From Nanobdellota archaeon (lineage in GTDB: Archaea; Nanobdellota; Nanobdellia; Woesearchaeales; GW2011-AR4), in assembly GCA_038046385.1 (NCBI GenBank), contig JBBSWH010000006.1, positions 64,001 through 128,000 of the forward strand: DNA of 64,000 nucleotides. The letters run 5' to 3'. Below, one piece after another: positions 4,963 to 46,672 of this stretch (position 1 is its first letter; each line of letters starts with the position of its first letter). The translations under genes were made by a program, and so were the position numbers. The notes under the pieces were generated by a model that was not told the DNA's origin, searched no databases, and was given only the letters and a program-made list of their open reading frames with translations.

Positions 4963-5075
4963 AGTTTTGCCATCGTTCGCATGTGTAAATAGGCGTTTAT
5001 TGCCAAAATTCCCATTGCAATTTCCTTTTGGCTAGCTACTTGATTAGAAGATGCTCACATAGTGATGGCAAAACT
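4963..5075. repeat. Dispersed palindromic element, copy 1
   Basis: AGTTTTGCCATC-GTTCGCAT...GCCAAAA-TTCCCATTGCAATTTCC-TTTTGGC...ATGCTCAC-ATAGT-GATGGCAAAACT. Confidence 0.9.
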
Positions 5076-5138
5076 GACATTTTCAACAAGCCTTCTTTGT
5101 CAGCAAACCTTAAAAACAAAATAGTGTTTCTTGAAGTT

Positions 5139-6497
5139 ATGGTTCCGCTCAGTGTTTCGCTTACTCATTATAAAAGAAAGGATATACAGGAAGAGATTGT
5201 GTATAATTCCATTGATAGGGAAATCGCTGCCAAGTTTGGGGAAAGCTTCGGGAAAAGGCCGGACATTCTGAGGAATCCAAGCGACATAATGGAGCTTGCA
5301 AAACAAGGCGTTACTTCTTTTCACGCTTCAGAAGAGCTTTGGAAAAATCCGCTGCAGATTGACACGTCAATGAAGAGGCACGAGCTTGATGCACTTCGTT
5401 CAGGCTGGGATTTGATAATAGACATTGACTGCACTGTTTTTGATTACTCAAAAATTGCAGCTGACCTTGTGATAAAAGCATTGAAATTCCATAAAGTAAA
5501 ATCCATATCGTGCAAGTTTTCAGGCAACAAGGGATTTCATATCGGAGTTCCTTTTGAGGTTTTTCCTGAAAAAGTGAAGAATGAAGACACAAAAAATATG
5601 TTTCCAGAAGCTCCAAAGAAGATTGCGCTGTACATAAAAAGCATGATAATGCCGGAATTCGGGATAAAAATTCTTGCGTTTGAGAAAAATGACATTGGAA
5701 AAGTTCTGGAGAAAACCGGCAAGGCTTCAAGCGAAGTTATTTACATCGAGAACGGGCAGAAAAAATTCAATCCGGAATCTATTTTGCAGATGGATACTTT
5801 GCTTATCTCGTCAAGACACCTTTACAGGATGCCTTATTCTCTGCACGAGAAATCCGGATTGGTGTCAATTCCTTTCAATCCTGAGAAAGTAATGCTGTTC
5901 CAGAAAGAGCTTGCACTTCCGAAGAATGTTAAAATCAGCTCCCACAGGTTTCTTGACAGAAAAAATGTTGAAAAGGATGAGGCAAAAAGGCTGTTTGTAG
6001 AGGCATTTGACTTTCATGTCAAGGAAGAATCGAATGTTGAAACGACAAAGAGAAAAGATTTTGAGGCGCCGGAGAACGCGCTGCCTGAAGAATTGTTTCC
6101 GCCCTGTGTTAAGCTCATACTGAACGGATTAGAAGACGGAAGAAAAAGAGCATTGCTTGTTTTAATCAATTATTTCACTTCAATCGGCTGGGATTATGAC
6201 GCGATTGAGAAAAAGCTTGTGGAATGGAACAAGAAAAACAAAGAGCCTATAAGGGATGTGTATCTGCTTGGGCAGTTAAGGTATCATAAGCAGATGCGAA
6301 AGAAAGTTCTTCCTCCAAACTGCAGCAACGAGATGTACATGCTGAATATGGGAGTTTGCAAGCCTGACAATTTCTGCCCAAAAATAAAGAATCCTGCGCA
6401 GTACAGCACAAGAAAGGCGTGGGGCATCAACCAAAGCGTGAAAAAGCCAAGGGCAAAGATGGTTGCAAAGAAAGACGACAATGCGAAAACTATATAA
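5139..6497 (+). CDS. priSL: Fused archaeal DNA primase (PriS catalytic domain plus PriL Fe-S domain)
   Basis: WDLIIDID, FSGNKGFH, RMPYSLH followed by FPPC...PPNC..C Cys cluster. Start set at ATG 5139 because the longer ORF start lies inside the repeat. Confidence 0.85.
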   Translation: MVPLSVSLTHYKRKDIQEEIVYNSIDREIAAKFGESFGKRPDILRNPSDIMELAKQGVTSFHASEELWKNPLQIDTSMKRHELDALRSGWDLIIDIDCTVFDYSKIAADLVIKALKFHKVKSISCKFSGNKGFHIGVPFEVFPEKVKNEDTKNMFPEAPKKIALYIKSMIMPEFGIKILAFEKNDIGKVLEKTGKASSEVIYIENGQKKFNPESILQMDTLLISSRHLYRMPYSLHEKSGLVSIPFNPEKVMLFQKELALPKNVKISSHRFLDRKNVEKDEAKRLFVEAFDFHVKEESNVETTKRKDFEAPENALPEELFPPCVKLILNGLEDGRKRALLVLINYFTSIGWDYDAIEKKLVEWNKKNKEPIRDVYLLGQLRYHKQMRKKVLPPNCSNEMYMLNMGVCKPDNFCPKIKNPAQYSTRKAWGINQSVKKPRAKMVAKKDDNAKTI

Positions 6498-6541
6498 ACC
6501 AGCAAATTTAGGCTATTCAATATAAAAATTGAGGTGATTAG

Positions 6542-6730
6542 ATGGTTTTCGGTGTTCAGGAAGTTACGCTTGCTATTATCATAGGCACGCTTGCAGCAAT
6601 TGTTTATTCTTTGAGAGTCCTTGTCCTTATGGAAAGAAGGATTGCAAGGATAGAGATGCATGTTGAAAGGGCTGTAGAAAAGGTTATGAAAGAAGAAATG
6701 AAAATCGAGAAAAGACTCGGTAAAAAGTAA
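6542..6730 (+). CDS. Small single-TM protein with a coiled-coil tail
   Basis: GAGGTGA Shine-Dalgarno directly upstream; 62 aa. Confidence 0.75.
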   Translation: MVFGVQEVTLAIIIGTLAAIVYSLRVLVLMERRIARIEMHVERAVEKVMKEEMKIEKRLGKK

Positions 6731-6738
6731 TTCTTTTT

Positions 6739-7146
6739 TTATATTTTTATTTTGTAACTGATTAATTCGTTAAAAGATATTCCCCTAAGCTCTGCTGTTT
6801 TTAATGCAATAACATATCCAGTTTTTGTCTTTTCTATGTCTTCTATTGCTATGAACAGCCATTCTTTTCTATAGAAACGGACTGCAAACCAAGGGCGCGC
6901 ATCAAATATTTCAGAAAATTCTGTCAGTTGGTTTAAATCGTACTGTGATAAATAAATTTTATCAGACTTGCTGGTTTTGCATTCAACTGCAACTCTTCTG
7001 TTGCTTTCTCTGCTGCCTGCCAATAAATCCGGCCCTGGATGATTCATTGAGCCGGAGCCGGCTGATCTTAAGCATGCCCAGCCTGCGTCCCAGAACATGT
7101 GCAATAACTGCCTTTCAGCATTAGAGCCTTTGCTTTTTAATGACAT
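6739..7146 (-). CDS. hjc: Holliday junction resolvase Hjc
   Basis: KGSNAER, RSAGSG, PDLLA, VECK motifs. Confidence 0.9.
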   Translation of the reverse strand: MSLKSKGSNAERQLLHMFWDAGWACLRSAGSGSMNHPGPDLLAGSRESNRRVAVECKTSKSDKIYLSQYDLNQLTEFSEIFDARPWFAVRFYRKEWLFIAIEDIEKTKTGYVIALKTAELRGISFNELISYKIKI

Positions 7147-8036: not shown

Positions 8037-8115
8037 AATACGAAGTACGGGAATATGATTTATAAGGGTTTTGGGTTTGACAACCTTTTTAAACAGCCAT
8101 TCATAACTAAAGGCT

Positions 8116-14399: not shown

Positions 14400-14535
14400 C
14401 TCAATTCTGCAATAAGAAAGGTGTACGCTCAGCAGTTACTTCCGCATATCATTGCTTGCGCTCAAAGGGTGTTCACTCAGTCATCGCGTACACAACAGCA
14501 ATAAAGAAGTTTAGCTTTTAAATCTGTCTATGACA

Positions 14536-14694
14536 TTTTGCCATCGTTCGCATTGAATGTATTAGATAATTACAAAAATTCCCATTGCATAGAGAAAATC
14601 CATAGGATTTTCTAAATTCAAGAATGTCCCATTCTTGAATATTTCCTTTTTGTTAGCTGTCGTATTAGAAAATGCTCACAATTTGATGGCAAAA
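14536..14694. repeat. Dispersed palindromic element, copy 2 (with 51-bp double-hairpin insert at 14590-14640)
   Basis: TTTTGCCATCGTTCGCAT...ATGCTCAC-AATTT-GATGGCAAAA. Confidence 0.9.
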
Positions 14695-14698
14695 CTGG

Positions 14699-15853
14699 TT
14701 ATCCAAAGAAATTAATGAAATCATTGCCTTCTTCTTTTTCTTCCTGCTTGACTTTTTCGATTGCCTTGAAGAAATCCTCTTTTGTCACAAAAAATTTGTC
14801 CTTCCTTATTGCAAAATACCCTGCTTCTGTGCAAACTGCTTTTATTTCAGCACCGCTGAAGTTTTCCATTTTTGCAATCAATGCTTCAAAATTCATTGCC
14901 TTGTCAAAGGTCATGTTCTTTGTGTGGATTTTGAATATGTCAAGCCTTGCTTCCTTGTTCGGAGTAGGTATATGAATTAATCTGTCTAGCCTTCCTGGCC
15001 TTATTATTGCAGGGTCAAGTATATCTTTCCTGTTTGTTGCTCCTATGATTTTGACATTGTCCAACGGCTTGAATCCGTCAAGCTCTGCAAGCAGCTGCAT
15101 GAAAGTCCTGTTGACTTCACGTTCGCCTGATGTGCCGACTTCTATTCTTTTTGATGCCAATGAATCAAGCTCATCTATGAAAACTATTGCAGGCGCCCTT
15201 CTTCTTGCAAATTCAAAGATTTCCTTCACAAGTTTCGCTCCTTCTCCGATAAACTTTTGAACGAGTTCAGATCCGACAACTTCTATGAATGTTGAATTTG
15301 TTTCGTGCGCAACTGCTTTTGCAAGAAGTGTTTTTCCTGTTCCAGGCTCTCCGTAAAGCAAGATGCCTTTTGGAGGAGTTATCCCTATTTTTTTGAACAG
15401 CTCCGGTTTTTTTAACGGAAGTTCTACAACTTCCTTTATCTCGTTTATCTGCTTGTCCAATCCGCCTATTTCTTTCCAAGATATTGTTGGCTTTTCAACA
15501 ATAACATATTTTTCTATGTTGAACTTTTTTGTCATCGGTATTTTTCTGATGACTGTTAAGTTCTTTTGCTCTACAAGAACTGTATCTCCTGGCTTTAATT
15601 TATCACAGTCATTTGAAATGTTGACAAAGAACTGGTTGCCGTTCGGAATTTTTATGATGGCGGTTTTTTCAAAAACCTCGCGCATTTCGCAAACCATTAA
15701 TGGAGAAGCTTTGAAACGTTCAATCTCTTCTTTCTGCCTGCCGATTGTTTCCTTCAGAATCCTGTTTTCTTCTTCATGCGGATTTGATGAGGTAGAATAA
15801 GAATACATTATGCTGTCAATTATGTTCTTTGGCTTTGCTTCCTTTGCTGGCAT
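14699..15853 (-). CDS. pan: Proteasome-activating nucleotidase (AAA+)
   Basis: Coiled coil and OB domain, GEPGTGKT, FIDELD, second region of homology RPGRLDR. Confidence 0.92.
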   Translation of the reverse strand: MPAKEAKPKNIIDSIMYSYSTSSNPHEEENRILKETIGRQKEEIERFKASPLMVCEMREVFEKTAIIKIPNGNQFFVNISNDCDKLKPGDTVLVEQKNLTVIRKIPMTKKFNIEKYVIVEKPTISWKEIGGLDKQINEIKEVVELPLKKPELFKKIGITPPKGILLYGEPGTGKTLLAKAVAHETNSTFIEVVGSELVQKFIGEGAKLVKEIFEFARRRAPAIVFIDELDSLASKRIEVGTSGEREVNRTFMQLLAELDGFKPLDNVKIIGATNRKDILDPAIIRPGRLDRLIHIPTPNKEARLDIFKIHTKNMTFDKAMNFEALIAKMENFSGAEIKAVCTEAGYFAIRKDKFFVTKEDFFKAIEKVKQEEKEEGNDFINFFG

Positions 15854-30976: not shown

Positions 30977-31047
30977 TGTATTTTGAATATAGCACTATAG
31001 AATTCTCCTTATGTCACCTCTTCTTTTTAAGCAATTCGCTTTTATGG

Positions 31048-31198
31048 GCTATGTAGAAAATCTCGCCTTGCTCGGCTGCCATCGTTCGCATGTTATTGTT
31101 TAGCTAAATGGCAAAAATTCCCACTGGAACTTCCTTTTTGCCTGATGTTAAATTTTATGATGCTCACGATTTGATGGCAGCTTCATTTTCTACATAGC
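31048..31198. repeat. Dispersed palindromic element, copy 3 (core 31075-31181) with an extra 14-bp outer inverted repeat
   Basis: GCTATGTAGAAAAT...GCTGCCATCGTTCGCAT...ATGCTCAC-GATTT-GATGGCAGC...ATTTTCTACATAGC. Confidence 0.9.
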
Positions 31199-31218
31199 TG
31201 AAAGCAATAAATATGAAA

Positions 31219-32382: not shown

Positions 32383-32472
32383 GATTTGGCCTTTTTTAAA
32401 TATGGAACTGTATTAACTGATGTGTTGTAAATTACATAAATATATTTAAAGCTTTGCATTATTGATTAATAT

Positions 32473-33537: not shown

Positions 33538-33548
33538 ACATGAATCTT

Positions 33549-33660
33549 AACTTTGCCATCGTTCGCATTATATCTGCTAAATTAAGGCGAGAATTCCCAT
33601 TGCAATTTCCTTCTCGCCATATTCTGTTCTAGAAAATGCTCACATAGTGATGGCAAAGTT
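33549..33660. repeat. Dispersed palindromic element, copy 4
   Basis: AACTTTGCCATCGTTCGCAT...GGCGAGAA-TTCCCATTGCAATTTCC-TTCTCGCC...ATGCTCAC-ATAGT-GATGGCAAAGTT. Confidence 0.9.
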
Positions 33661-33727
33661 GCTCATTGAATCGAAAGTTATAAAAACCAAGTGCTGAATA
33701 TTACATAAAAAAAGAGGTGTATGTATC

Positions 33728-35683
33728 ATGGAAGAATCATTTATTACTTCAATTCTCTCTGAAAAAAGAGTATTCAACCCAAGCCAGGATTTTGTTTCGT
33801 CTGCAAGGATAAGGAGCATGGATGATTACAATACAATTTACAAGAAATCTGTTGAAAATCCTACTGAGTTCTGGGCGGAAAAGGCAAATGAGCTTGACTG
33901 GTTCAAGAAATGGAATAATGTATTAAGAAATGATCAGGGTTTTTTCAAATGGTTTGAGGGCGGCTTTATTAATGTGGCTTACAACTGCCTAGACAGAAAT
34001 GTCTATGCAGGCAAAAAGAACAAAGTTGCATTTATCTGGGAAGCAGAGTCAGGAGAGACAAAAATTTACACTTATGGGCAGCTGCTGAAAGAAGTCTGCA
34101 GGTTTGCAAATGTTCTGAAGAAAAAAGGAGTAACGAAAGGAAATGTCGTGGAGATTTATCTTCCTATGATACCTGAATTGCCTATTGCAATGCTTGCATG
34201 CGCAAGGATTGGGGCAGTACATTCAATTGTTTTTGCAGGGTTTTCATCTGATGCCTTGAAGGACAGAATACAGGATTCAAAAGCGGATTTGCTTGTAACA
34301 GCAGACGGAAGCTTCAGGAACGGAAAAGTTTTCCCGCTGAAAGACAATGCTGACAATGCATTGAAAGACTGCCCTTCAATAAAAAATGTTGTTGTTGTCA
34401 AGAGAACTGGCAATAATGTTAATATGCAGCAAAGCCGTGATTTCTGGTGGCATGACTTGATGAAAGAAAAAGATATTAGCAACTGGTGTGACTGCGAAAG
34501 TATGCATTCAGAAGATTCTTTGTTTATTCTTTATACATCCGGAACAACCGGAAAGCCAAAAGGAGTCTTGCATACGACAGCAGGCTATCTTCTTTATGTA
34601 AATCAAACCTTCAAATATATTTTTGACATAAAAGACAATGATGTTTATTTCTGCACAGCAGACATTGGATGGATTACAGGACATTCTTATATTGTATACG
34701 GGCCGTTGTCAAACGGCGCAACTGGTGTGATGTTTGAAGGATCACCAACGTTCCCGCAGCCAGACAGATTGTGGAGAATTGTTGAAAAATACGGAGTCAC
34801 TGTGTTTTACACTGCTCCGACTGCAATAAGGGCATTGGCAAAAGAAGGCGACCAGTGGCCTAATGGATGCGACTTAAGCTCATTGAGATTATTGGGAAGT
34901 GTAGGGGAGCCGATTAATCCGGAAGCCTGGGTTTGGTACCATAACATAATCGGAAAAACAAAGTGCCCTATAGTGGATACTTACTGGCAGACTGAGACCG
35001 GAGGAATTATTGTAAGCCCGTTGCCTGGTGCGACGCCTGCAAAGCCAGGCTCTGCGACTAAGCCATTTTTCGGAATTGTTCCGGAAATTTTAAGGGAAGA
35101 CGGAACAAAAGCAAATATCAATGAAGGCGGAAACCTTGTCATAGTTCATCCATGGCCTGGAATGCTAAGGACAGTATGGGGCAATCCGGAAAAATACAAG
35201 CACACTTATTTTGAGCAGTTCGGAGTATACCTTACAGGAGACACTGCCAAGATTGATGAGGACGGATACTTATGGGTTATGGGCAGGAGTGATGATGTAA
35301 TTAAAGTTGCTGGCCACAGAATTGGAAGCGCAGAAGTTGAATCATCTTTAGTCAGCCACCCTTCTGTAGCAGAGGCTGCTGTTGTTCCTTTCCCGCATGA
35401 GATAAAAGGGTGGGCGCTTTATGCGTTTGTCACGCTGAAGAAAGGCGTCGACAAAAATGAACAGCTAAAAGAAATCCTAAAGAAACACGTTTCTGATAAA
35501 GTCGGCCCTATTGCAAAGCCTGACAAAATACAATTTGCAGACGATTTGCCTAAAACAAGAAGTGGCAAGATAATGCGACGCATCTTGAAAGTGATAGCAG
35601 AGGGGGGAACAGACTACGGCAACATAACAACGCTTGTAGACCCCGGTGTTGTAAAAACCCTAGCTGACACTAGGATTAGATAG
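33728..35683 (+). CDS. acs: AMP-forming acetyl-CoA synthetase
   Basis: [39 protein letters not shown] motifs. Confidence 0.95.
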
Positions 35684-35863
35684 TCCTTACGAGTGATTTT
35701 CCGTAACCTTTAAATACTAGTATAGATTATTCTGTAATAACTAGGCAGTTATGATAATCAATTACTATTCGGTAATGAAATTACCACTAACTGATGGGAA
35801 ATAACAACATTTTAATATGAGTGTTTTTATCCCCTTATAATAATAAAAAGGGGGTGTATTGAT

Positions 35864-36679
35864 ATGATAGTTAAAGAAGAATTTTTAAGCAGGTTAAGGA
35901 GAAATTTTGCCTTGAACCTTTACGAGGTTAAGATATGGACAGCTCTATTAAGCAGAGGCGTGTCAACAGCAGGCGAGCTTTCGGACATTGCAAATGTCCC
36001 AAGATCAAGAAGCTATGATGTTCTAGAGTCATTGGAAAAGAAGGGTTTCGTTGTTATGAAGCTTGGAAAGCCAATAAAATACATTGCAGTTCCTCCAAAG
36101 GAAGTTGTTGAAAGAGTAAAGAAAAACGTTGAGGCGCATGCCAAAGACGAATTGAAGAAACTTTCTGATTTGAAAAACACAGATGTTATTGAAGAGCTAA
36201 GCACCTTGCACACGCAGGGTGTTGAGCTTGTTGAACCGTCTGATTTATCTGGTTCATTAAGGGGGAGGCATAACTTGTACAACCACCTTGAGCTTACAAT
36301 AAGAAACGCAGAAGAAAGCGTAACTTTGATGACAACAACCCAGGGATTCATAAGAAAGGTTGAAGGATTTTTGCCAACTTTTGAAAAGCTGAAGAAAAGG
36401 GGAGTAAGAGTAAGAATTGCTGCTCCGATAACAAAAGAGGCAATGCCTGCAATGAAAGAGCTTCAGGGAATTGCTGAAGTAAGGAACACTGATACAAAGG
36501 CAAGGTTCTGCATTGTTGACGGCAAAGAAATCATATTTATGGTTCTTGACGACAATGAAGTTCACCCGACATATGATGTTGGAATCTGGGTCAACACGCC
36601 ATTCTTCGCAAGCGCTATGGAAGATTTGTTTGAATTGGCTTGGAAGAACATGAAGGTTACAGCAGAAACAAAGAAATAA
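35864..36679 (+). CDS. TrmB-family transcriptional regulator
   Basis: LNLYEVKIW...VPRSRSYDVLESLEKKGF HTH. Confidence 0.88.
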   Translation: MIVKEEFLSRLRRNFALNLYEVKIWTALLSRGVSTAGELSDIANVPRSRSYDVLESLEKKGFVVMKLGKPIKYIAVPPKEVVERVKKNVEAHAKDELKKLSDLKNTDVIEELSTLHTQGVELVEPSDLSGSLRGRHNLYNHLELTIRNAEESVTLMTTTQGFIRKVEGFLPTFEKLKKRGVRVRIAAPITKEAMPAMKELQGIAEVRNTDTKARFCIVDGKEIIFMVLDDNEVHPTYDVGIWVNTPFFASAMEDLFELAWKNMKVTAETKK

Positions 36680-36779
36680 ATTATTTTATTTTTCTTTTTT
36701 TATTTAATTTTTATTATTTAGATTAAATATAGTTATACCAATGCAAAACTATAAAAAAGGCCATAATTTACTTTAAACG

Positions 36780-37619
36780 ATGAAACCTCAAGAGTTGCTT
36801 GCACTTAAACAAAAGGCAAAAAACCTTAGAAAAGATATTATTGATATTATATACAAGGCGCAATCCGGTCACCCTGGAGGATCATTAAGCGAGATAGATA
36901 TGCTTGTTGCTCTTTATTTTTATAAGATGAATGTTAATTCTTCGAAACCTCACTGGGAAGACAGGGACAGATTTATTTTAAGCAAAGGCCACGCGAGCCC
37001 TGGATTATATGCTGTTCTTGCCGAGAAAGGGTATTTTCCAAAATCAGAGCTTGATGGATTCAGGAAAACTGGTCGTATGCTGCAGGGGCATCCTGAATTA
37101 AATACTCCTGGAGTGGATTTTGCCGGCGGCTCGCTTGGGCAGGGTATATGCTTTGCTTTGGGTGTTGCACTTGCATGCAGGTTAGACAAAAGAAAAAATA
37201 AAATTTATGCTATGATTGGTGATGGGGAAGCACAAGAAGGATCAGTGTGGGAAGCCACAATGGCTGCTGCATTCCACAAAGCGGACAATTTAATTGTGAT
37301 ATTGGATAAAAATCAGGTCCAGGAAACCGGAAAAACAAAGGAAGTGATGGACTTGGGAAATGTTGCTGCAAAATGGAAATCGTTTGGATGGAATGTTATC
37401 GAGATAAACGGGCATGATGTGGCGCAATGCGTTTCTGCACTTGATAAGGCTTCTAAATCAAAAGGAAAGCCGACAATGATTGTTTCAAATACAATAAAAG
37501 GCAAAGGAGTTTCATTCATGGAACTGAATCATAAGTTTCACGGCAAAGCTCCGAATGAAGAAGAATACAAGAAAGCGATTTCAGAGATTGAAAAAATTAA
37601 TGTTAATAAGTTTAAATAA
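36780..37619 (+). CDS. Transketolase, N-terminal subunit
   Basis: SGHPGGSLS, LSKGHA, GDGEAQEG TPP-binding motif. Confidence 0.92.
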   Translation: MKPQELLALKQKAKNLRKDIIDIIYKAQSGHPGGSLSEIDMLVALYFYKMNVNSSKPHWEDRDRFILSKGHASPGLYAVLAEKGYFPKSELDGFRKTGRMLQGHPELNTPGVDFAGGSLGQGICFALGVALACRLDKRKNKIYAMIGDGEAQEGSVWEATMAAAFHKADNLIVILDKNQVQETGKTKEVMDLGNVAAKWKSFGWNVIEINGHDVAQCVSALDKASKSKGKPTMIVSNTIKGKGVSFMELNHKFHGKAPNEEEYKKAISEIEKINVNKFK

Positions 37620-37623
37620 ATTG

Positions 37624-37672
37624 GCGAGCTGGTCGGATGCCAGCGAGCGTAAATATTGTGAGCGTAGCGAAC
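37624..37672. repeat. Pair of short hairpins with tandem G.A mismatches
   Basis: GC-GA-GCTGG...CCAGC-GA-GC and GT-GA-GC-GTA-GC-GA-AC. Confidence 0.6.
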
Positions 37673-37743
37673 GGAAAAATAAAATTACAAAAACAATAAC
37701 GAAACTCAATAATAAAAAATAATTTAAAAATAACCTAATAAAA

Positions 37744-38685
37744 ATGGAAACTCAAAAAATAGCAACAAGGGAAGGATACGGAAAAGCGCTGCTTGAGCTT
37801 GGAAAGATAAACAAAAACGTTGTTGTTGTAGATGCTGACCTTGGCGATTCAACCAAGGCAGAATTGTTCGGCAAGCAGTTTCCTGACAGATATTTTATGA
37901 TGGGAATTGCAGAGCAAAACATGGTTGGAGTCTCTGCCGGATTTTCTGTATCGGGTAAGATACCTTATGCAAGCACTTTTGCTGTTTTCAGTGAAAGGGC
38001 TTTTGAATTCACGCGCAATATTGTATCAAGAAACAAATTAAATGTTAAACTAGCTGGTTCACATGCCGGCATCACAACAGGCGAAGACGGAAAAAGCGCG
38101 CAGGCAATTGAAGATATTGCAGTCTATAGATCATTGCCTAACATGGTTGTTTTACAGCCATGCGATGCTGTTGAAGCGGAGAAAATGGTTTTTGCGCTGG
38201 TTGATTATAACGGGCCATCTTATATGAGATTGCAGAGAACAAGCGTTCCTGTGATACATTCTGCTAATTATAAATTTGAAATGGGCAAGGGCGAGGTTTT
38301 AAGAGAAGGAAAAGATGCTGTGATATTCGCAACAGGCACGATGGTGCATGAATCCTTAAAAGCAGCTGACATTTTGAAGAATGAAAATGTTTCAGTGTAT
38401 GTTGTTAACATTCACACAATAAAGCCGTTAGATGAAACTCTTGTTTTGAATCTTGCAAAGAAAACTGGGTTTGTTGTAACAGCAGAAGACCATAGCATTA
38501 TTGGAGGATTGGGAAGCGCTGTTGCCGAAGTTTTATCTGAAAATTATCCTTGTATGATGAAAAGAATCGGAATGAAAGATAGGTATGGAGAGTCCGGAAA
38601 TCCTACAGAGCTGTACAAGAAGTACGGGCTTGATGCTGCTTCTATTGCAAAAGAAGTTTTGAAGAGTGTCAGGAAGAAGAGATAG
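37744..38685 (+). CDS. Transketolase, C-terminal subunit
   Basis: DADL, GIAEQNM, GEDG, EDHSIIGGLGSAV motifs. Confidence 0.92.
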   Translation: METQKIATREGYGKALLELGKINKNVVVVDADLGDSTKAELFGKQFPDRYFMMGIAEQNMVGVSAGFSVSGKIPYASTFAVFSERAFEFTRNIVSRNKLNVKLAGSHAGITTGEDGKSAQAIEDIAVYRSLPNMVVLQPCDAVEAEKMVFALVDYNGPSYMRLQRTSVPVIHSANYKFEMGKGEVLREGKDAVIFATGTMVHESLKAADILKNENVSVYVVNIHTIKPLDETLVLNLAKKTGFVVTAEDHSIIGGLGSAVAEVLSENYPCMMKRIGMKDRYGESGNPTELYKKYGLDAASIAKEVLKSVRKKR

Positions 38686-38704
38686 GATTTGAATATTAAC
38701 GATA

Positions 38705-39535
38705 ATGCGACTTGATCTTTATCTTGCCAAAAACCGGAAATTGGTAAATGATTCTCTTAAAAAGTATCTGCCTGAATGCAGCCCTTATTCAAAAAAAGTC
38801 TGCGATGCAGTGCATTACAGCGTTTTTACAGGAGGAAAAAGGATAAGGCCGATTTTGGCAATTGCCGGGGCTGAATCTGTTGGAGGGACTGTAAGAGAAG
38901 TTATTCCTCTGGCATGCGCAATTGAATTTATACATGCATATTCCCTGATTCATGATGACCTTCCGTGCATGGATGATGATGACTACAGGAGGGGAAAATT
39001 GACATGCCACAAAAAGTTCAATGAAGCAATTGCGGTTTTGGCAGGGGATGCATTATTGACAAGGGCATTTCAGATTTTAATCAATGAGCTAAAACGAAAA
39101 AATGCTGCTTATTCGATAAAAATTCTTGCTAACGCTGTTGGCACTGGCGGGCTGATTGGCGGGCAGACTGCAGACATAGAAAACAAAAAAATATCTGCTG
39201 GATTGCTTAATTACATACACTCAAACAAAACTTCTGCTTTGATAAAGGCTTCTGTTGTTTCTGGAGCAGTATGGCACGGGGCAAGCAAAGAACAGATTAA
39301 AAGATTAACAGGGTATGGCCATAAAATAGGCATGGCTTTCCAGATAATGGACGATATTGATGATTATAATAATGAGAAATCAAAAGTCACTTATCCTAAC
39401 CTATATGGATTGAAAAAATCCGAAAAAATTGCAAGAAATCTTGTTGCAGAATCCAAAAAAGAACTTGATATGTTTGGCAAAAACGCAGAAGCTCTAAGGA
39501 TGATAGCAGATTATATTACCAAAAGAAAGAATTGA
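38705..39535 (+). CDS. Short-chain polyprenyl diphosphate synthase (IspA-like)
   Basis: GGKRIRP, HDDLPCMDDDDYRRG, GQTAD, KT, FQIMDD motifs. Confidence 0.9.
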   Translation: MRLDLYLAKNRKLVNDSLKKYLPECSPYSKKVCDAVHYSVFTGGKRIRPILAIAGAESVGGTVREVIPLACAIEFIHAYSLIHDDLPCMDDDDYRRGKLTCHKKFNEAIAVLAGDALLTRAFQILINELKRKNAAYSIKILANAVGTGGLIGGQTADIENKKISAGLLNYIHSNKTSALIKASVVSGAVWHGASKEQIKRLTGYGHKIGMAFQIMDDIDDYNNEKSKVTYPNLYGLKKSEKIARNLVAESKKELDMFGKNAEALRMIADYITKRKN

Positions 39536-39603
39536 TATTTATCTTATTTTAATCTAAATTTAATAACTAAACCTTTTTATAAGCTCTTGAATAGCTTTAT
39601 AGT

Positions 39604-40752
39604 ATGGCACAGGCAGAGAAGAAGGATTTCAACGTCAAGGACTTTAAGTCAAGAGAAAGCGCTTATGACAAGAGAGTAAAGGAACTTGAGGATGAGATAT
39701 CCGGCACCAAGTACAATAAGAAGACCCAGGGCCATATTGGGCTTGTAAAAGCAAAGTTAGCGAAAATAAAGGAAGACCAGCAGAAAAAAGTATCTTCAAA
39801 ATCCGGAGGGATGGGCTTTAGCGTCAGAAGGTCAGGAGATGCAACGGTCATAATGGTCGGTTTTCCGTCAGTTGGAAAATCAACTCTCCTAAATTCCATA
39901 ACAAACGCGAATTCTGAAGTTGCAGCTTATGCATTTACAACTTTAACATGCATTCCCGGCCTGATGGAGTACAACCACTCAAAAATACAGGTTTTGGACG
40001 TTCCCGGCATTGTGGAAGGCGCTGCAACAGGCAGAGGAAGGGGAAAAGAAGTTTTGGCGTGCGCACAAAGTGCAGATCTTGTTTTAATCATTGTGGATGT
40101 TTTCTTTCCTGAGCATCTTGAAGTGGTTCAAAAAGAGATTTATGACACCGGAATAAGATTAAACCAAAAGCCGCCTCAGATAAGGATATCGAAAAAATCA
40201 AGGGGAGGGATTGATTTGGGTGCAACTGTGCGATTAACAAAGATGAGCGACGAAACTATCAAGGGAATACTGAAAGAATTCAGGATGGACAACTCAAGCA
40301 TTGTGCTAAGAGAGGATGTGACAGATGACCAATTAATAGACGCAATTGAAGGCAACAAAAGGTATATTCCAGGGATTACCATCCTAAACAAGATGGATAT
40401 GGTTGATGAAAAGGAGCTTGAAAGGGTAAAGGCAATTGTAAAGCCGGATATCTGCATATCTGCAGAGAAAAAACTCAACACAGAAGAACTTAAGGATCTT
40501 ATTTTCAAAAAACTGGAATTCATGAGGGTTTTCTGCAAGGAAGCCGGCAAGAGGGCGGATACGGATGTCCCTGTAATAATGAGGCAGGGCAACACAATGA
40601 GGGATATGTGCATGAAGCTGCACAAGGATTTTGTTTCCAGGTTCAAGTTTGCAAGAATATGGGGGAAATCCGCAAAATTCCCGGGAATGATTGTACGAAA
40701 GCTTGACCATGTGCTGCTGGATAATGATGTTGTTGAGATACATTTGAGGTAG
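39604..40752 (+). CDS. DRG/Rbg1-family OBG GTPase with TGS domain
   Basis: GFPSVGKS, YAFTT, DVPG, NKMD motifs. Confidence 0.92.
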   Translation: MAQAEKKDFNVKDFKSRESAYDKRVKELEDEISGTKYNKKTQGHIGLVKAKLAKIKEDQQKKVSSKSGGMGFSVRRSGDATVIMVGFPSVGKSTLLNSITNANSEVAAYAFTTLTCIPGLMEYNHSKIQVLDVPGIVEGAATGRGRGKEVLACAQSADLVLIIVDVFFPEHLEVVQKEIYDTGIRLNQKPPQIRISKKSRGGIDLGATVRLTKMSDETIKGILKEFRMDNSSIVLREDVTDDQLIDAIEGNKRYIPGITILNKMDMVDEKELERVKAIVKPDICISAEKKLNTEELKDLIFKKLEFMRVFCKEAGKRADTDVPVIMRQGNTMRDMCMKLHKDFVSRFKFARIWGKSAKFPGMIVRKLDHVLLDNDVVEIHLR

Positions 40753-40787
40753 CAATGTTTATATATTGATAATTTTCAGGTATTTTT

Positions 40788-41498
40788 ATGACAGATGTTT
40801 TAGATATGGATACTGTTTTGACTTATGCTAGATTTCTTAAAGGTCTTGAAGAAAAAACAATGCAGGTTTTAAGGATTAAAAACCAGATTGATGAAAAAAT
40901 GATCCAAATAGTTGATAAGCTGAAAGACGACCTTACAAATGCCAATTTGATTGCCTCTCTGGAAGATTTAAGAAGAAGGGAAGAACGTGTTAAAAACTAC
41001 ATCAAAAATGGATTGTATACTATAGAAGGAGACATCATGCCAAAATTAGAAGCAGCCAAAAAGGAGATTCCTGATATAGAAAAGCTAAAATTTGTCATAA
41101 ATTTTTTCATGAAAGAGCTGGCCAAAGCCACTTTAAGGCTTAGGAAAGAAAAGCATTTTATTGAAGATCCTTCTGAAAAAAACTTTAAGAAATTTGTTAA
41201 AGCTTATCATAAGGAATTAAGCTTGGGCAGCAGGCTGCTGAATGAGATTGCTGGCCTTCGTTTTGAAAGCATCAGTGACAGGGATATAAAGATGGTTGTG
41301 TATGCTGGCATCGGCAGCATGGGTCTTAACGGAATTTTGCAGCAATTGGAAAAGGGGCACATAGACCCTCTTAATGGTTTTTTGGCTATGGTAAGTGCTA
41401 TGGTATTTACAATGGTCAGCCTTTATCTTTTAAATTCAAACAAAAGAGAAGACTATATTGGAAAATTAAAAAGAAGGTATGGGTTTTCTTTTTTCTAG
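40788..41498 (+). CDS. Hypothetical helical protein with C-terminal hydrophobic segments
   Basis: 236-aa ORF with TATA box upstream. Confidence 0.65.
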   Translation: MTDVLDMDTVLTYARFLKGLEEKTMQVLRIKNQIDEKMIQIVDKLKDDLTNANLIASLEDLRRREERVKNYIKNGLYTIEGDIMPKLEAAKKEIPDIEKLKFVINFFMKELAKATLRLRKEKHFIEDPSEKNFKKFVKAYHKELSLGSRLLNEIAGLRFESISDRDIKMVVYAGIGSMGLNGILQQLEKGHIDPLNGFLAMVSAMVFTMVSLYLLNSNKREDYIGKLKRRYGFSFF

Positions 41499-41542
41499 CA
41501 CAACACACAAGCTTTAAATATAACTTTATGTTTCCTTATTTA

Positions 41543-41638
41543 ATGAAAAGAGTTGAAAATTTTATGGCAGAGGTCGGATTTGCTTTCTACAGGCTGTTTT
41601 CATCTTTCAAGTTTTTCTTGATTTTTTTTAAGCATTAA
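41543..41638 (+). CDS. Candidate Phe-rich leader peptide (31 aa)
   Basis: MKRVENFMAEVGFAFYRLFSSFKFFLIFFKH with 9 Phe; TTTAAATA 22 nt upstream; below the ORF-track length cutoff. Confidence 0.5.
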   Translation: MKRVENFMAEVGFAFYRLFSSFKFFLIFFKH

Positions 41639-41689
41639 ACTGCATTTTCATGCTGTTTTCATTGAATTTAACTAGGGTGACTTTACAAA

Positions 41690-42187
41690 ATGAATGTTGT
41701 GCTGACGGGATTTATAGGAACTGGAAAAACCACAATTGCAAGGCTTCTTGCTCAAAAGACAGGCAAGAGCCTGGTTTCAACAGAGGAAGAAATATCCAAA
41801 AAGGCTAAGATGAGCCCTGGAAAATTCATAGAAAAGAACGGAATTAACAGATTCTATGACCTTGAGGCTGATGTTGTTGAGATAATATGCGAATTTGATG
41901 ACTGTATTTTTGACGCTGACTACAGAATTCTTATGAAAAATGAGAATGTAATAAGCTTCAAGAAAACATCTGTAATAATCATGCTGACAGCCGACATAAA
42001 AGATGTTCAGGAGAGAATGAAAAAAAAAGCGTCTTCTTGGACTAAAAAAAGCACCAATGAGCTTGAAGCGTCTATTAAAGAATATGAATCCAGATGCGGA
42101 AAAATTGCTGACTACATAATAGACAGCTCAAGAATGTCACCTGAAGATGCGTGCGACTTGATTGCGCATTATGTGCAGAATGAATAA
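41690..42187 (+). CDS. Shikimate kinase-like P-loop kinase (divergent)
   Basis: MNVVLTGFIGTGKTT; AroK-like length; GGG motif not conserved. Confidence 0.75.
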   Translation: MNVVLTGFIGTGKTTIARLLAQKTGKSLVSTEEEISKKAKMSPGKFIEKNGINRFYDLEADVVEIICEFDDCIFDADYRILMKNENVISFKKTSVIIMLTADIKDVQERMKKKASSWTKKSTNELEASIKEYESRCGKIADYIIDSSRMSPEDACDLIAHYVQNE

Positions 42188-42198
42188 GGCGACTTGAT

Positions 42199-43719
42199 AT
42201 GGACATAAAAAAACTTTCTGAAAGCCTGAATCCGTCTGAAAGAAAAGTCCTCAAGGTTTTGGACAGTTTTCAGTCAATCTCTGAAATAATGAAAGTCACT
42301 GGGCTAAAAGATGTAGAAGTTGTAAGATCACTGCAGTGGCTGCAAAACAAGCATGCTGTAAAAATTGAAGAAACGCAGAAAGAGGCCGTTGTTCTTGATG
42401 AAAATGGAATAAAGTACGCAAAATACGGATTGCCGGAGAGGATTTTTCTTGAAGCGCTCGACAAGCCGCTTACGCTTGAAGAGCTTGGCAAAAAATCAGG
42501 CTTGAGCAGCGAAGAGGTTGCAATTTCTTTAGGAGTTTTAAAGTCAAAAAATGCAGTTGAAATAAAAAAAACTGTGTCAATCGTTGTTTCCATAACAGAG
42601 CACGGAAAGCATATGCTGAAAAAAGGATTCCTGGAAGAAAATTTTCTGAAGGGAACATTTCCGAAGGAAGTTTCAGCACTTTCAGAAGAAGAAAAATTTT
42701 CTGTTGAAAATCTTAGAAAGAGAAAAAGGATAATAACGGTGCAGGCCTCCAAGGTTTTGACTGCAACATTAACTGAAACAGGGAAAAAACTGCTCAAGGA
42801 GAAGCTTGACGAAGAGCTTATTGAGAAAATAACTCCTGCAATGATAAAATCAAAATTATTCATAGGTAAAAAATTCAGGAGATATGATGTAAAAGTCAAT
42901 GTTCCTTCAATATTCGGGGGAAGGAAGCAGCATTACAAGAGGTTTCTTGATGAAGTCCGTGAAAAATTCGTTGCTCTTGGATTTGAGGAGCTTTCAGGGC
43001 CTATTGTAGAAAGCGATTTCTGGGATATGGATGCGCTGTTCATGCCGCAGTTCCATTCTGCAAGAGACATTCATCAGGGATATTACATAAAAGACCCGAA
43101 ATACGCAAAGGATTTGCCGGAAGACAAGGTAAAAAATGTAAAAGCTGCACATGAAAACGGCTTCGGAACAGGGTCAAAAGGATGGAGATACGATTTTGAT
43201 GTCAAAAGAACGCACAGGCATATTTTAAGAACGCATGACACTTCAATATCGGCAAGAATGCTGGCATCAAATAATCTTAAGATACCCTGCAAGCATTTCC
43301 AGATAGCAAGATGCTTCAGGTATGATGTTGTTGATGCAACTCATTTGCCTGATTTCAACCAGGTTGGCGGGATAATTGCAGAAGAGAACATAAATTTCGG
43401 GCACTTAAAATCATTATTGAGGCTTTTTGCAAAAGAATTTGCAGGAACTGAAGAAATAAGAATAAAACCAAGCTACTTTCCATTCACAGAGCCTAGCGCA
43501 GAACTGCAGGCAAAGCATCCTGAATTAGGATGGATAGAATTAGCCGGATCTGGCATTTTCAGGCCGGAACTTGTAAAGGCACTTACAGGAAAAGACACTC
43601 CAGTCATAGCCTGGGGAGTCGGGCTTGACAGATTAGCGATGTTCAAGCTTGGAATAAAGGACATAAGGCAGCTGTTTTCTCATGACCTTGAATTTTTGAG
43701 AAATGCGAGGGTGATATAA
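42199..43719 (+). CDS. pheS: Phenylalanyl-tRNA synthetase alpha subunit
   Basis: PQFHSARD, LRTH, YFPFTEPS, GIFRPE, GLDRLAM motifs. Confidence 0.95.
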   Translation: MDIKKLSESLNPSERKVLKVLDSFQSISEIMKVTGLKDVEVVRSLQWLQNKHAVKIEETQKEAVVLDENGIKYAKYGLPERIFLEALDKPLTLEELGKKSGLSSEEVAISLGVLKSKNAVEIKKTVSIVVSITEHGKHMLKKGFLEENFLKGTFPKEVSALSEEEKFSVENLRKRKRIITVQASKVLTATLTETGKKLLKEKLDEELIEKITPAMIKSKLFIGKKFRRYDVKVNVPSIFGGRKQHYKRFLDEVREKFVALGFEELSGPIVESDFWDMDALFMPQFHSARDIHQGYYIKDPKYAKDLPEDKVKNVKAAHENGFGTGSKGWRYDFDVKRTHRHILRTHDTSISARMLASNNLKIPCKHFQIARCFRYDVVDATHLPDFNQVGGIIAEENINFGHLKSLLRLFAKEFAGTEEIRIKPSYFPFTEPSAELQAKHPELGWIELAGSGIFRPELVKALTGKDTPVIAWGVGLDRLAMFKLGIKDIRQLFSHDLEFLRNARVI

Positions 43720-45395
43720 TGCCGGCAATATTATTTTCATTAAATGATCTGCAGCATCTTGTAGGCAAGAAGCTGGATATTGAGGAACTAAAGCAACTTG
43801 CGCATTATGCAAAAGCAGATATTGAACATTATGATGAAGAAGCTGATGAAATTAAGATAGAATTTGGAGATACAAATCTGCCATATTTATGGTCTGTCGA
43901 GGGGTTTGCAAGATTTTTAAAGGGAATTCTTGGAATATCAAAGGGAATTCCAAAAATAAAAATTGAAAAGGGGCCGTATAAGGTTATTGTTGACAAAAAC
44001 GTGATGGAATGCAGGCCGTATATATCCTGCTTTGCCGCAAAGGGCAGCAAAATAAATGACTATCTTTTGAAGCAACTGGTTCAGCTGCAGGAGAAATTCT
44101 GCGAAGGCTATGGGAGAAGAAGGCAGAAAGTTTCTATTGGATTGTATTCTTATGACAAGATAACTTTTCCGGTGAATTACAAATGTGTCTCGCCAAAAAC
44201 AGAATTTATTCCGCTTGAATTCAAGTCAAAGATGAATCTTAAGGAGATTCTTACGGAACATCCAAAAGGGAAAGAATATGCCTATGTCCTTAACAAGCTT
44301 GAAGAATATCCTGTCCTCATAGACGATAAAAATGAGATATTAAGCTTTGTCCCTATAATAAATTCAAATTTCACCGGCAAGCTTGAGATTGGAGATGAAA
44401 ATCTTTTTTTTGAAGCCACGGGAACTGATGAAGAATCCGTAAACCTTGCTGCAAATATTTTTGCATATTCACTTCATGAGCGCGGGTTTAGTATTTATTC
44501 TGCAGAGATAAAATATCCTGACAGAAAAATTGTTTCCCCTGCGCTAGAATGCGACGAGATAAAAATAAAAAATGGAGATATAAATAATATTTTCGGGATG
44601 GAGATAAAAGAAAAAGAAGTAAAGCATCTGCTTGAAAAAGCGTCTTATGAATTTGAAAACTGGAACGTAAAAATACCTTCTTACAGAAAAGACATTCTTC
44701 ACGCACGAGATGTTATTGAAGATATAGGGATAATGTACGGATTTGACAAAATAGAAGACAAGCCCCTTGAAACATTTACTGTCGGAAAATCACTTGCAAT
44801 AAATGAGTTTATCGTAAAGATAAGAGAAATTCTTGCAGGAATCGGATGTCAGGAAATATTGAGCCCTATGCTTACAAACAAGGAATTTCTTTACAAGAAA
44901 ATGAACATTTCTGATTTTGGAACAATAGAAATAGAGGAATACATGTCAGAAACTTATTCTGTTATCAGAAGCTGGGTGCTGCCAAATATGATGGAAGTAT
45001 TGTCAAAGAACAAGCATGTTGAATACCCGCAAAGAGTTTTTGAAGAAGGAATTGTAAACAGAAAAAAGAATGATACAATTGAAGAAAATTATTCTGCCGC
45101 AGTTGCTGTTTCGCATGAAGACGCAAATTACACTAATGTAAGGCAGGCGCTTGATTACATTGGAAGATTAATTGGAATAGAGTTTGACTATGCAGAAGAA
45201 TCACATATGTCTTTTATTGAAGGAAGGTGCGCGATTGCAAAGGCAAGAGGAAGGAATATTGCAATTCTTGGAGAAATAAATCCCGCTGTGCTTGAAAACT
45301 GGAATCTCGAGATGCCTGTTGCTGCGATGGAAATCAATTTAACAGAATTGTTTGATGTTGTGAACAGCAAACATAATGGAAAAGCTGCAAAATAA
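43719..45395 (+). CDS. pheT: Phenylalanyl-tRNA synthetase beta subunit
   Basis: RPY, QEK, PIINS, PSYRKDILHARDVIED motifs. Confidence 0.93.
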   Translation: MPAILFSLNDLQHLVGKKLDIEELKQLAHYAKADIEHYDEEADEIKIEFGDTNLPYLWSVEGFARFLKGILGISKGIPKIKIEKGPYKVIVDKNVMECRPYISCFAAKGSKINDYLLKQLVQLQEKFCEGYGRRRQKVSIGLYSYDKITFPVNYKCVSPKTEFIPLEFKSKMNLKEILTEHPKGKEYAYVLNKLEEYPVLIDDKNEILSFVPIINSNFTGKLEIGDENLFFEATGTDEESVNLAANIFAYSLHERGFSIYSAEIKYPDRKIVSPALECDEIKIKNGDINNIFGMEIKEKEVKHLLEKASYEFENWNVKIPSYRKDILHARDVIEDIGIMYGFDKIEDKPLETFTVGKSLAINEFIVKIREILAGIGCQEILSPMLTNKEFLYKKMNISDFGTIEIEEYMSETYSVIRSWVLPNMMEVLSKNKHVEYPQRVFEEGIVNRKKNDTIEENYSAAVAVSHEDANYTNVRQALDYIGRLIGIEFDYAEESHMSFIEGRCAIAKARGRNIAILGEINPAVLENWNLEMPVAAMEINLTELFDVVNSKHNGKAAK

Positions 45396-45492
45396 AACAC
45401 TGCTCAATAAAATAAAATTCATTAACTAAGAAATTTAATTAAAAAAATAAAAAAGAAATTAAAATAATAAGATAATAAAGCAAGAAAAGATT

Positions 45493-46029
45493 TTATTCTT
45501 TCTTAACAGATTTTTTTGCAGCAGGCTTCTTCTCCTTTGGCTTTTCTTCCTTTGCTGCTTCCTTGTGCTCGTGAGCGTGGTCATGCCCTTCATGTTTATG
45601 GTCGTGCGGGTGATCATGCGCATGCTCCATTTTCGGCTCGGCTGCTGCTGCTTTTGCTTCAAGGCTTGCTTCTGCCTTTTTCTTTGGCTTAAAGACATTT
45701 CTTAGTTTTTTCTTCTCTTCCTTCTGAACCTTCAATTGGTCAGGGGTCTTTCTTTTTTTCTTTGGCTTTTCTGTTTTTGGCTTTGGTTTTGTCTGCAAAA
45801 CTTCTATTCCTACTTCCTTCAATGCCTTTGCGACTTCAGAATGGGATGCGTTCTTTGCTATCTTGACTGATTGATTGATAGGCTCAAGGTGCATTATGTT
45901 GCACTTTCTCCTTCTTGTCTCTCCGTCAAGCAATACGAACTTGTGATCCAGAATGTCAACTATTACTGCTTTCTTTCCTGCGTCTCTTCCTGCTGTCTTA
46001 ACAACCAATCTTCCTATTTCCAATGCCAT
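45493..46029 (-). CDS. rpl14e: 50S ribosomal protein L14e with long K-rich and His-rich tail
   Basis: IGRLVVKTAGRDAGKKAVIVD...RRKCNIMHLEP. Confidence 0.9.
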   Translation of the reverse strand: MALEIGRLVVKTAGRDAGKKAVIVDILDHKFVLLDGETRRRKCNIMHLEPINQSVKIAKNASHSEVAKALKEVGIEVLQTKPKPKTEKPKKKRKTPDQLKVQKEEKKKLRNVFKPKKKAEASLEAKAAAAEPKMEHAHDHPHDHKHEGHDHAHEHKEAAKEEKPKEKKPAAKKSVKKE

Positions 46030-46165
46030 TTTTATCCTCCAGTCACTTTTGATGAAAAGGTAAGAAAAAGCTATTGCCTTTCAAACCACTTCATTCGGGA
46101 TGATGTCACCATTCATCCAAGTGATTTCAATTTATTTTTTTGATAATAGTGATTAATGAATATGT

Positions 46166-46432
46166 TTATGGTATTACACTGTCAACTATTTTCTTTCTCA
46201 TGCATCTGCTGCATAGTACGCCGCCAAAAGGCCTTTGAGGGCGCTTTTTGGTCTTTGCAAGGTTCTTCATCTTATATGGCAAGACTCTTGGAACTGCCTT
46301 TAATACATCACCGCAACCTGAGCAGATTGCTGCTTTAGGCTTCTTTTTACTAAAATGTATGACTGTTCTTCCGCCTGGAAGTCTCCTTGACACTTTCCTT
46401 AGGCTTGTTGACCTTAATCTTGGTGCTGGCAT
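46166..46432 (-). CDS. rpl34e: 50S ribosomal protein L34e
   Basis: LPGGR, CSGC, RPFGGVLCSRC motifs. Confidence 0.93.
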   Translation of the reverse strand: MPAPRLRSTSLRKVSRRLPGGRTVIHFSKKKPKAAICSGCGDVLKAVPRVLPYKMKNLAKTKKRPQRPFGGVLCSRCMRKKIVDSVIP

Positions 46433-46504
46433 AGATATTGGAATAAGTTCTTGATTTATAAAGGTTATTACTGCACTAGTTGGATTATAAAGTTAGATTC
46501 TGTT

Positions 46505-46672
46505 AAGTTTTACCATCGTTCGCATGTAATGTGGGTTTATATTGCAAAAATTCCCACTGGAACGCTAAAAAATCATAGATTTTTGGCGCACCAAAAACGC
46601 AATGCGTTTTTTAGTGCTTCCTTTTTGCTGAATGTTTAATTAAAAGATGCTCACATCTTGATGGCAAAACTT
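46505..46672. repeat. Dispersed palindromic element, copy 5 (with 54-bp double-hairpin insert at 46563-46616)
   Basis: AAGTTTTACCATCGTTCGCAT...ATGCTCAC-ATCTT-GATGGCAAAACTT. Confidence 0.9.

Follow-up and report, generated by a model that had tools for sequence, protein, structure and literature searches.

The stretch analysed here, called the window, comprises 64,000 nucleotides of the forward strand of contig JBBSWH010000006.1 (positions 64,001 to 128,000) in the Nanobdellota archaeon assembly GCA_038046385.1. Its genes include those for an M48 peptidase, a PAN ATPase, an acetyl-CoA synthetase and ribosomal protein L34e, and between its genes lie five copies of a dispersed, imperfectly palindromic repeat. 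The nature of this repeat, of its ends and of its folded core is the subject of this report. A preliminary description, made from the letters of the window alone, had listed the five copies, and all of them were found again at those places and in one orientation by a covariance model (R1). The model was built from 17 short copies of the source genome and is read on the minus strand of the window. The word CCATCGTTCGCAT occurs exactly five times in the window, on the plus strand every time; when up to two mismatches are allowed there are six matches against 0.92 expected, and none of 100 shuffled sequences reached six.

The arms, inner stems and boxes of the repeat had been quoted correctly. 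The two segments of 17-19 nt that separate them had been given their right length, but they are variable only in part, being semi-conserved and similar to each other. The five places were likewise right, but the ends were not: the elements run further out, into outer inverted repeats. Copies 2 and 5 owe their length to a two-hairpin module of 51-54 nt at the apex. The source genome (1.28 Mb in 19 contigs, 85% complete, with Hef, Hjc, eRF1, L34e and PAN present) contains 32 copies, all situated between open reading frames. This corresponds to about one copy per 40 kb, in place of the one per 10 kb that had been extrapolated from the window. The element is 115-270 bp long, multi-copy and too short to code for a transposase.

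Ends, target duplications and promoters

Beyond the core the outer flanks pair again, as in GGCGTTATTGAAAAGT...ACTTTTCAATAACGCC and GCTATGTAGAAAAT...ATTTTCTACATAGC. In young copies they form terminal inverted repeats of about 15 nt that mostly start with GGC (GGCGTTATTGAAAAGT, GGCTCTGTAGAAAAT, GGCTTTGTGTAAAAAGT and others). Nine of the 32 copies of the source genome have outer repeats that are complementary at 12 or more of 14 positions, compared to a null of 2.5%, and most of the others are at background. Many copies in related genomes have terminal repeats complementary at 11 or 12 of 12 positions. Direct repeats are found directly outside the outer repeats, both in the source genome (AAGCAATA, TCTTCAAC and TGATTCAG) and in its relatives (TTACCGAAC, GCATTAAAA, CCCTCAAAA and GCTCCCCCA). 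Such an abutting direct repeat, with a score of at least 7, is present at 21 of 98 copies; when the scan was shifted by 15 or 11 nt, the numbers fell to 0 and 4 of 98, respectively. The duplications are 8 bp (ten copies), 9 bp (seven), 10 bp (two) and 11 bp (two) in length.

The duplicated sites have a fixed position relative to promoters. The motif TTTAWATA, with at most one mismatch, begins 3-8 nt past the duplication in 17 of the 21 duplicated copies, and 14 motif starts are at exactly 6 nt; the chance expectation is about 4% per side. The promoter is on the 3' side of the model in eight of these 17 copies, on the 5' side in eight and on both sides in one. Thus, in young copies, the duplication lies about 6 nt upstream of the TATA box, where the TFB recognition element (BRE) has its upstream edge, in either orientation of the element. 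Four of the five copies in the window (1, 3, 4 and 5) keep the corresponding distance of 15-16 nt between their end and a TATA box. Copy 5 has a TATA box on each side and therefore splits two back-to-back promoters. An apparent co-orientation with the downstream gene (24 of 32 copies) dissolved on closer counting because many copies have divergent promoters on their two sides; counted cleanly, the ratio is the 8:8 just given.

These properties describe what is very probably a MITE (miniature inverted-repeat transposable element) of the IS5-family type, which lands just upstream of archaeal promoters and carries a folded core. The preliminary description had offered a REP- or MITE-like element as one of its alternatives. 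The MITE-like half has been borne out by the terminal repeats, the duplications of 8-11 bp, copy numbers between 0 and 39 and the existence of autonomous relatives; the HUH/Y1 transposase that was to drive it has not.

A repetitive extragenic palindromic (REP) or REPIN-like element, moved as folded single-stranded DNA by a HUH/Y1 transposase of the REP-associated tyrosine transposase (RAYT) type, would fit the imperfect palindrome seen here, its conserved unpaired bases and its strand bias, and REP/REPIN elements are likewise dispersed and show compensatory changes. There is one IS200-like Y1 gene in the source genome (C10:41904-42236, 53.1 bits; 49.4 bits with NF033573, below its cut-off of 55). 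Moreover, the orientation of the copies is shared within a contig in 28 of 32 cases (p 0.012; contigs C1, C5, C6 and C11) and tracks the sign of the local GC skew. However, this consistency was not repeated in the related genome G017, where 15 of 20 copies, counted by hand, are the random expectation. On the oriC contig the count is six of eight, so that a replication-strand bias is at most a possibility. To our knowledge HUH elements make no target duplications, and REPs lack the signature of terminal repeats and duplications and adjoin a RAYT gene, neither of which is true here. No copy adjoins the sole Y1 gene, no Y1 match was obtained in G017 despite its 39 copies, and by our own tally 36 congeners divide into 12 with both the element and a Y1 gene, six with the element only, eight with a Y1 gene only and ten with neither. 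This explanation, largely refuted by the duplications already, is scarcely credible. The Y1 gene itself (C10:41826-42305) encodes 159 residues with HUH and Y motifs, is tightly packed between two genes and is not flanked by hairpins or repeats; it could be a domesticated gene or a remnant. A likeness to integron attC sites was also dropped, since duplications are present and cassette arrays are lacking.

Table 1. Copies of the element in the window and the promoter elements next to them (window positions).
Feature	Position	Strand	Remarks
Copy 1, whole MITE	4948..5092	-	core 4960-5077, R1 111 bits
Copy 1 outer inverted repeats	4948-4961 (GGTTAGGTTAAAAT) and 5079-5092 (ATTTTCAACAAGCC)		10/14 complementary, counted by eye
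TATA box of M48 peptidase gene (4059-4901, minus)	4923..4932	-	15 nt (9+6) beyond left end of copy 1
Copy 2, long form	14531..14698	-	core 14531-14698, R1 86 bits; 51-nt two-hairpin apex module 14590-14640
Copy 3, whole MITE	31047..31198	-	core 31071-31186, R1 102.6 bits
Copy 3 outer inverted repeats	31048-31061 and 31185-31198		GCTATGTAGAAAAT and ATTTTCTACATAGC; perfect, 14/14
TATA-like box of the gene for a 1245-residue SLT/amidase protein (27239-30976, minus)	31023..31031	-	15-16 nt beyond left end of copy 3
Copy 4, core only	33546..33662	-	core 33546-33662, R1 114.5 bits; no IS903-like outer repeat
TATA box (TTATAAAA) of acetyl-CoA synthetase gene (33728-35683)	33678..33685	+	15 nt past end of copy 4
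Copy 5, long form	46476..46689	-	core 46503-46673, R1 85.3 bits; 54-nt two-hairpin apex module 46563-46616
Copy 5 outer repeats	46675-46689 (right) and 46476-46488 (left)		left repeat decayed
TATA box of L34e gene (46166-46432, minus)	46453..46460	-	15 nt beyond left end of copy 5
TATA box of gene to the right of copy 5	46706..46715	+	16 nt past right outer repeat

The five copies in the window are listed in Table 1. The target duplication of copy 1 is no longer recognisable, and its best 14-nt outer window, with 11 of 14 positions complementary, does not coincide with the tabulated repeats. Copy 2 lies between convergent gene ends. On its right side no outer repeat is recognisable, and the core abuts the stop codon (14699-14701) of the PAN ATPase gene (14699-15853, minus strand) with zero spacer, so that the last codons of this gene may derive from former element or target DNA. 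Copy 3 has an extra segment of 13 nt at 31062-31074. At copy 4 a decayed direct repeat, CATGAATC and CATTGAATC, is found 3 nt beyond the arms.

Parent insertion sequences and known systems

Four congeners (G020, G012, G034 and G062) contain an insertion sequence (IS) of the IS5 family that is about 0.9 kb long and encodes a DDE transposase of 272-277 residues. The ends of these ISs are those of MITE subtypes: GGCGTTGTTGAAAAT at G020:C61 and G012:C30, GGCTCAGTAGAAAGT at G062:C37 and GGCACCGTTCAAAA at G034:C41. Three of the four copies are flanked by 9-bp duplications. Two copies obey the landing rule strictly, with the TATA octamer at 6 nt, as at G062:C37, where the duplication ACACCAACA is followed by 6 nt and then by TTTATATA; a third, that of G020, shows a TATA-like box 5-6 nt on when judged by eye. 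With NF033579 (cut-off 140) the transposase reaches 150.5 bits, and with PF01609 it reaches 64.4 bits. Across eight loci with transposase matches, which include the four parent ISs, R1 gave no significant match (a single match had an E-value of 0.97); therefore the MITE and the IS share only their ends.

An IS5-family transposase of this parental type would act in trans to move the MITE, and would itself read either the promoter DNA or the promoter bound by TBP and TFB. The core is cargo that has no counterpart in the parent IS.

IS903 makes a 9-bp duplication. The ends of IS903B (GGCTTTGTTGAATAAATC, taken from a plasmid record) and the left end of the haloarchaeal ISHla2 (GGCTCTGTTGAAATCC), both elements being of the IS5 family, resemble the ends described here (GGCGTTGTTGAAAAT, GGCTTTGTGTAAAAAGT and GGCTCTGTAGAAAAT) in starting mostly with GGC and in the order of their words; the G020 IS end matches IS903B at 14 of 18 positions by hand count. 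An initial likeness to IS26/IS6 was dropped once real ends were compared. The parent transposase, too, is an IS5-family DDE protein, but it is only 30% identical to that of ISHla2 and 24% to those of IS903B (E-value of about 1e-4), and it is shorter. The elements further differ in that insertions here are directed to a site some 6 nt upstream of the archaeal TATA box, and in that the MITE possesses a conserved folded core which the parent IS lacks.

Bacterial elements of the TnGBS type keep a constant, short spacing when they insert upstream of a promoter element. TnGBS and ISLre2/ISKra4 are promoter-targeting DDE elements (PMC3942029) with Mutator-like transposases and sigma-A promoters as their targets. 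The site upstream of a promoter element is a point of likeness; the IS5-family transposase and the archaeal BRE/TATA promoters are points of difference. MITEs driven by IS5-family transposases are a known kind of element. Correia/NEMIS, ERIC, RUP and BOX are, according to a MITE review (PMC10969869), short, non-coding, intergenic MITEs with terminal repeats and duplications, whose transcripts have stable stem-loops. The present element shares its small size, intergenic position and end structure with them; it differs in being archaeal, in its invariant non-canonical pairs, its unpaired strands of fixed length and the branch modules at its loops, and in its precise promoter-proximal landing. 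In that review, archaeal MITEs are given only for Sulfolobus, Halobacterium, Haloquadratum, Desulfurococcus and 'several other' genomes, no DPANN element is listed and TATA is never mentioned. A census of 2024 places a Woesearchaeal genome among those with the highest archaeal MITE densities (PMC11602168). In the literature that was searched, neither a TATA-linked landing nor a conserved non-canonical core was found described for archaea; the supplementary MITE lists of PMC11602168 were outside the search and may hold these sequences. MITEs as such are ordinary, and it is the fixed landing relative to the archaeal TATA box and the folded cargo that are unusual here. The former implies a transposase that reads promoter architecture, and makes the family a natural tool and a natural experiment for the study of BRE/TATA promoters in unculturable organisms.

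Some results weigh against an IS5-type MITE. There is no clear duplication at 77 of the 98 copies, which is in part due to the method, as the boundary finder is conservative. No IS5-type transposase was found in the 85% complete source genome or in G017, which have 32 and 39 copies, and such a transposase is present in only eight of 43 congeners. The absence is weak evidence because IS copies often fail to assemble. An exact empty site was not obtained either. Mobility would nevertheless fit the spacer between the eRF1 and acs genes, in which copy 4 lies and which in five relatives is 86-170 nt shorter and contains no element; of these orthologous spacers, those of G001 and G012 were compared and lack the element, and those of G015, G008 and G007 are equally short. 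The DNA of the relatives is, however, too diverged to define the site itself. Contigs from four DNA runs covering 27001-47000 were short; they represented near-identical strains or chimeric joints between copies, and in none of them was an element deleted.

PF01609, PF13610 (IS6-type) and IS110 transposases have no match in the source genome, and the TnpB zinc ribbon reaches 19.2 bits only, which is below the cut-off. A 374-residue PF13610 transposase near a copy in G006:C3 belongs to a separate element. A different IS of 1.65 kb was found at G003:C173:439-2090. Its ends begin GGGGGATTGAGGGGGA, the 9-bp duplication beside them (TTTGAAAAA) is perfect, and its DDE_Tnp_1 transposase has 390 residues.

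The folded core

The core forms a rod-like fold. A helix, GCCAUC/GAUGGC, is followed by a 5-nt A-rich bulge and by a second helix that contains an invariant tandem G.A mismatch; further inward there are two unpaired strands, an A/U-rich inner stem and a conserved apex. The unpaired strands are the segments of 17-19 nt mentioned above, which are similar to each other but not complementary, and which keep their length. The covariation noted in the preliminary description holds, as 16 of the 24 pairs predicted by RNAalifold from 17 copies of the source genome have double changes. In an alignment of 100 distinct copies from the source and related genomes, 98.9% of the stem cells pair, compared to 76.2% in shuffles and 34-51% with the partners slid; 20 of 23 pairs have changes on both sides and none of 500 shuffles equals the real data, with the proviso that the alignment was fitted to the R1 model and that such fitting favours structure.

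The tandem G.A mismatch was also read correctly at the outset: it is G,A / G,A on the minus strand, with the four positions conserved in 98, 98, 99 and 99 of the 100 copies. The pairs around it vary while the mismatch stays, for example from GCAU/AUGC to AGCU/AGCU, and the A.C mismatch of copy 5 is indeed a G.U stem pair on the minus strand. Pairs 11, 13 and 14, the G.A columns and the apex are invariant in sequence across terminal-repeat subtypes and genomes.

No correspondence between the fold and a known RNA family was found. No Rfam family reached its gathering score in the window, and a search of eight loci at E-values of up to 5 gave only mir-4791 (E-value 3.5), a chance match. A kink-turn consists of a C stem, a 3-nt bulge and tandem G.A/A.G pairs directly after the bulge; an L7Ae-type kink-turn was rejected, since, as read here, the bulge measures 5 nt and the G.A pairs follow only after two Watson-Crick pairs (G-C, and U-A or C-G). 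Box C/D small RNAs have a C box (RUGAUGA), a D box (CUGA) and 12-nt guides. In place of such boxes GYGAGCAU and AUGCGARC are found here, with unpaired strands of 17-19 nt, and this assignment was rejected too.

A structured RNA gene had been the other possibility raised from the window alone. Free-standing genes for small RNAs, transcribed from the minus strand and perhaps guide-like, with motifs for protein binding on either side of two variable strands, would account for the covariation, the invariant tandem G.A, the one-strand excess of G.U discussed below and the two unpaired strands of fixed length. They would not account for the terminal repeats, the target duplications, the parent ISs or the range of 0-39 copies among congeners. 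Inspection of the flanks revealed no consistent upstream promoter, the orientation to neighbouring genes is 8:8, there is no Rfam match, and by reading, C/D boxes and a canonical kink-turn are absent. Such genes are thus very unlikely.

The apex could in principle be an Orc1/Cdc6 binding site, similar to an origin recognition box (ORB), that the element has spread. One apex variant, TTCCCACTGGAAC, resembles the Pyrococcus mini-ORB and the ORB core, TTCCACTGGAAC and TTCCAGTGGAACT, as given in PMC1904270. The element, however, has TTCC-N5-GAA or CAA without a G-string, its commonest apex variant (TTCCCATTGCAAT) lacks GGAA, and in the source genome itself the ORB-like boxes upstream of orc1 read TTCC-N4-GAA with GGGG or GGG after it. 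An origin box at the apex is therefore highly improbable. The genomic boxes are inverted relative to each other and enclose an AT-rich stretch at C6:135680-135830, about 7.7 kb beyond the right end of the window. One box reads TTCCATAGGAAAT and has GGGG after it, the other reads TTCCACACGAAAC, with GGG next to it. This stretch, directly upstream of the only orc1/cdc6 gene found, is likely to be a replication origin.

Other small elements have landed in the core, and only in the unpaired parts of its fold. A second repeat family of about 72 nt, with the organisation GTC-hairpin-GAGCATGCTC-hairpin-GAC and an AT duplication, has inserted at C7:32385-32568 into the 5-nt bulge of a copy, and at C6:5656-5950 a copy has in its bulge a longer insert whose beginning is that of the 72-nt element. 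Further members of this second family were also found. The two-hairpin apex module of copies 2 and 5 (Table 1) is also found in other long forms elsewhere in the genome, and the sequences of its hairpins differ between copies.

The cores of the source genome are better preserved than the ends. Twenty-one of 31 cores have all 23 pairs of the Watson-Crick type, 28 have at least 21 such pairs, and intact cores occur also where neither terminal repeats nor duplications can be recognised any longer. All eight outer-repeat pairs of the family type, as identified by reading, hold an intact core, and few remnants of decayed cores were seen. The apparent survival of cores beyond the ends, the confinement of inserts to unpaired parts, the sequence invariance of several stem positions and the excess of G.U pairs together suggest that the core is retained in its own right. 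The chances are about even that selection maintains it, as a minus-strand fold of RNA or single-stranded DNA or as a platform for protein binding, and that it is not a mere stuffer.

The evidence for selection on such a fold has its counterweights. The minus strand, on which the fold had been placed from the beginning, finds some support in the invariant tandem G.A and in 31 cells with G.U against seven with A.C, but these are cells and not events, nine of the 31 are at one pair, and by columns the ratio is 13 to 7. The folding energies are equal and do not separate the strands (-1143.3 and -1141.3 kcal/mol, summed over the folded copies). The random 8:8 orientation to promoters speaks against an RNA with a single sense relative to the neighbouring gene, whether made from it or acting on it. 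Both strands carry a run of five or more T in 57 of 100 copies (21.5% in the background), which, as regards a terminator, is an enrichment but not a rule. Finally, copies were found through their cores, so that decayed cores would have been missed.

It is possible, though less likely than not, that the MITE carries the core only as stuffer, and that its conservation reflects a recent spread from few masters together with co-evolution of the arms or hairpin-templated correction. Fresh target duplications accompany most copies with intact ends, interiors are common within subfamilies and the parent IS moves without a core; the bias of the search, the random orientation and the equal energies of the two strands fit this explanation as well. 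Recent spread is harder to reconcile with 21 of 31 perfect cores next to nine of 32 intact outer-repeat pairs, with positions invariant in sequence across subtypes and genomes, with unpaired strands that keep their length without being complementary, and with the 31 to 7 ratio of G.U to A.C.

If selection does act on the core, a function as an insulator or terminator before promoters is a weak idea at present. A more general proposal, which must be considered doubtful, is that the core is a functional single-stranded fold, of minus-strand RNA or DNA, delivered to the upstream promoter edge by a TATA-aiming transposon and kept by the host after the ends decay, in other words a mobile exapted cis module such as an insulator, a terminator or a binding platform. 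The core appears to outlast the ends, and if this is true, mobile DNA seeds a conserved structured element before many genes of a very small genome. An exapted module of this kind would, if real, rewire promoters in genome-reduced DPANN archaea.

Distribution and minor observations

The survey with R1 detected the element in 18 of 36 congeners, with 1-39 copies each, and in one of 24 genomes that belong to other families in the order. Both G017 (39 copies) and the source genome (32 copies) are rich in the element. In other species, copies of a different subtype or with fresh target duplications lie beside orthologues of the genes that flank copies here, and we read this as repeated insertion at the same promoters. 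A 24-mer scan of genome contigs gave 27 loci, of which 26 are in records of Woesearchaeota, Nanoarchaeia or Methanosarcinales and one is in a Deltaproteobacteria record. R1 was applied to 26 of these loci and matched 25 (24 full-length MITE cores and one cut at the end of the locus); no IS was found in the 26. A scan with 15-mers yielded 120 chance matches in unrelated bacteria and was uninformative.

Truncated remnants are found beside unrelated genes, as ends at G003:C120 and G017:C20 and as half copies at C5:28856 and C7:42780. The copy at C1:80836-81010 has a GC-rich, divergent core and no IS903-like ends, and is flanked by a direct repeat of 14-15 nt (CTTGAGATTGTAGA). The protein of 1245 residues whose promoter adjoins copy 3 combines an SLT transglycosylase domain with an N-acetylmuramoyl-L-alanine amidase domain, a set of bacterial cell-wall hydrolases that is here encoded by an archaeon.

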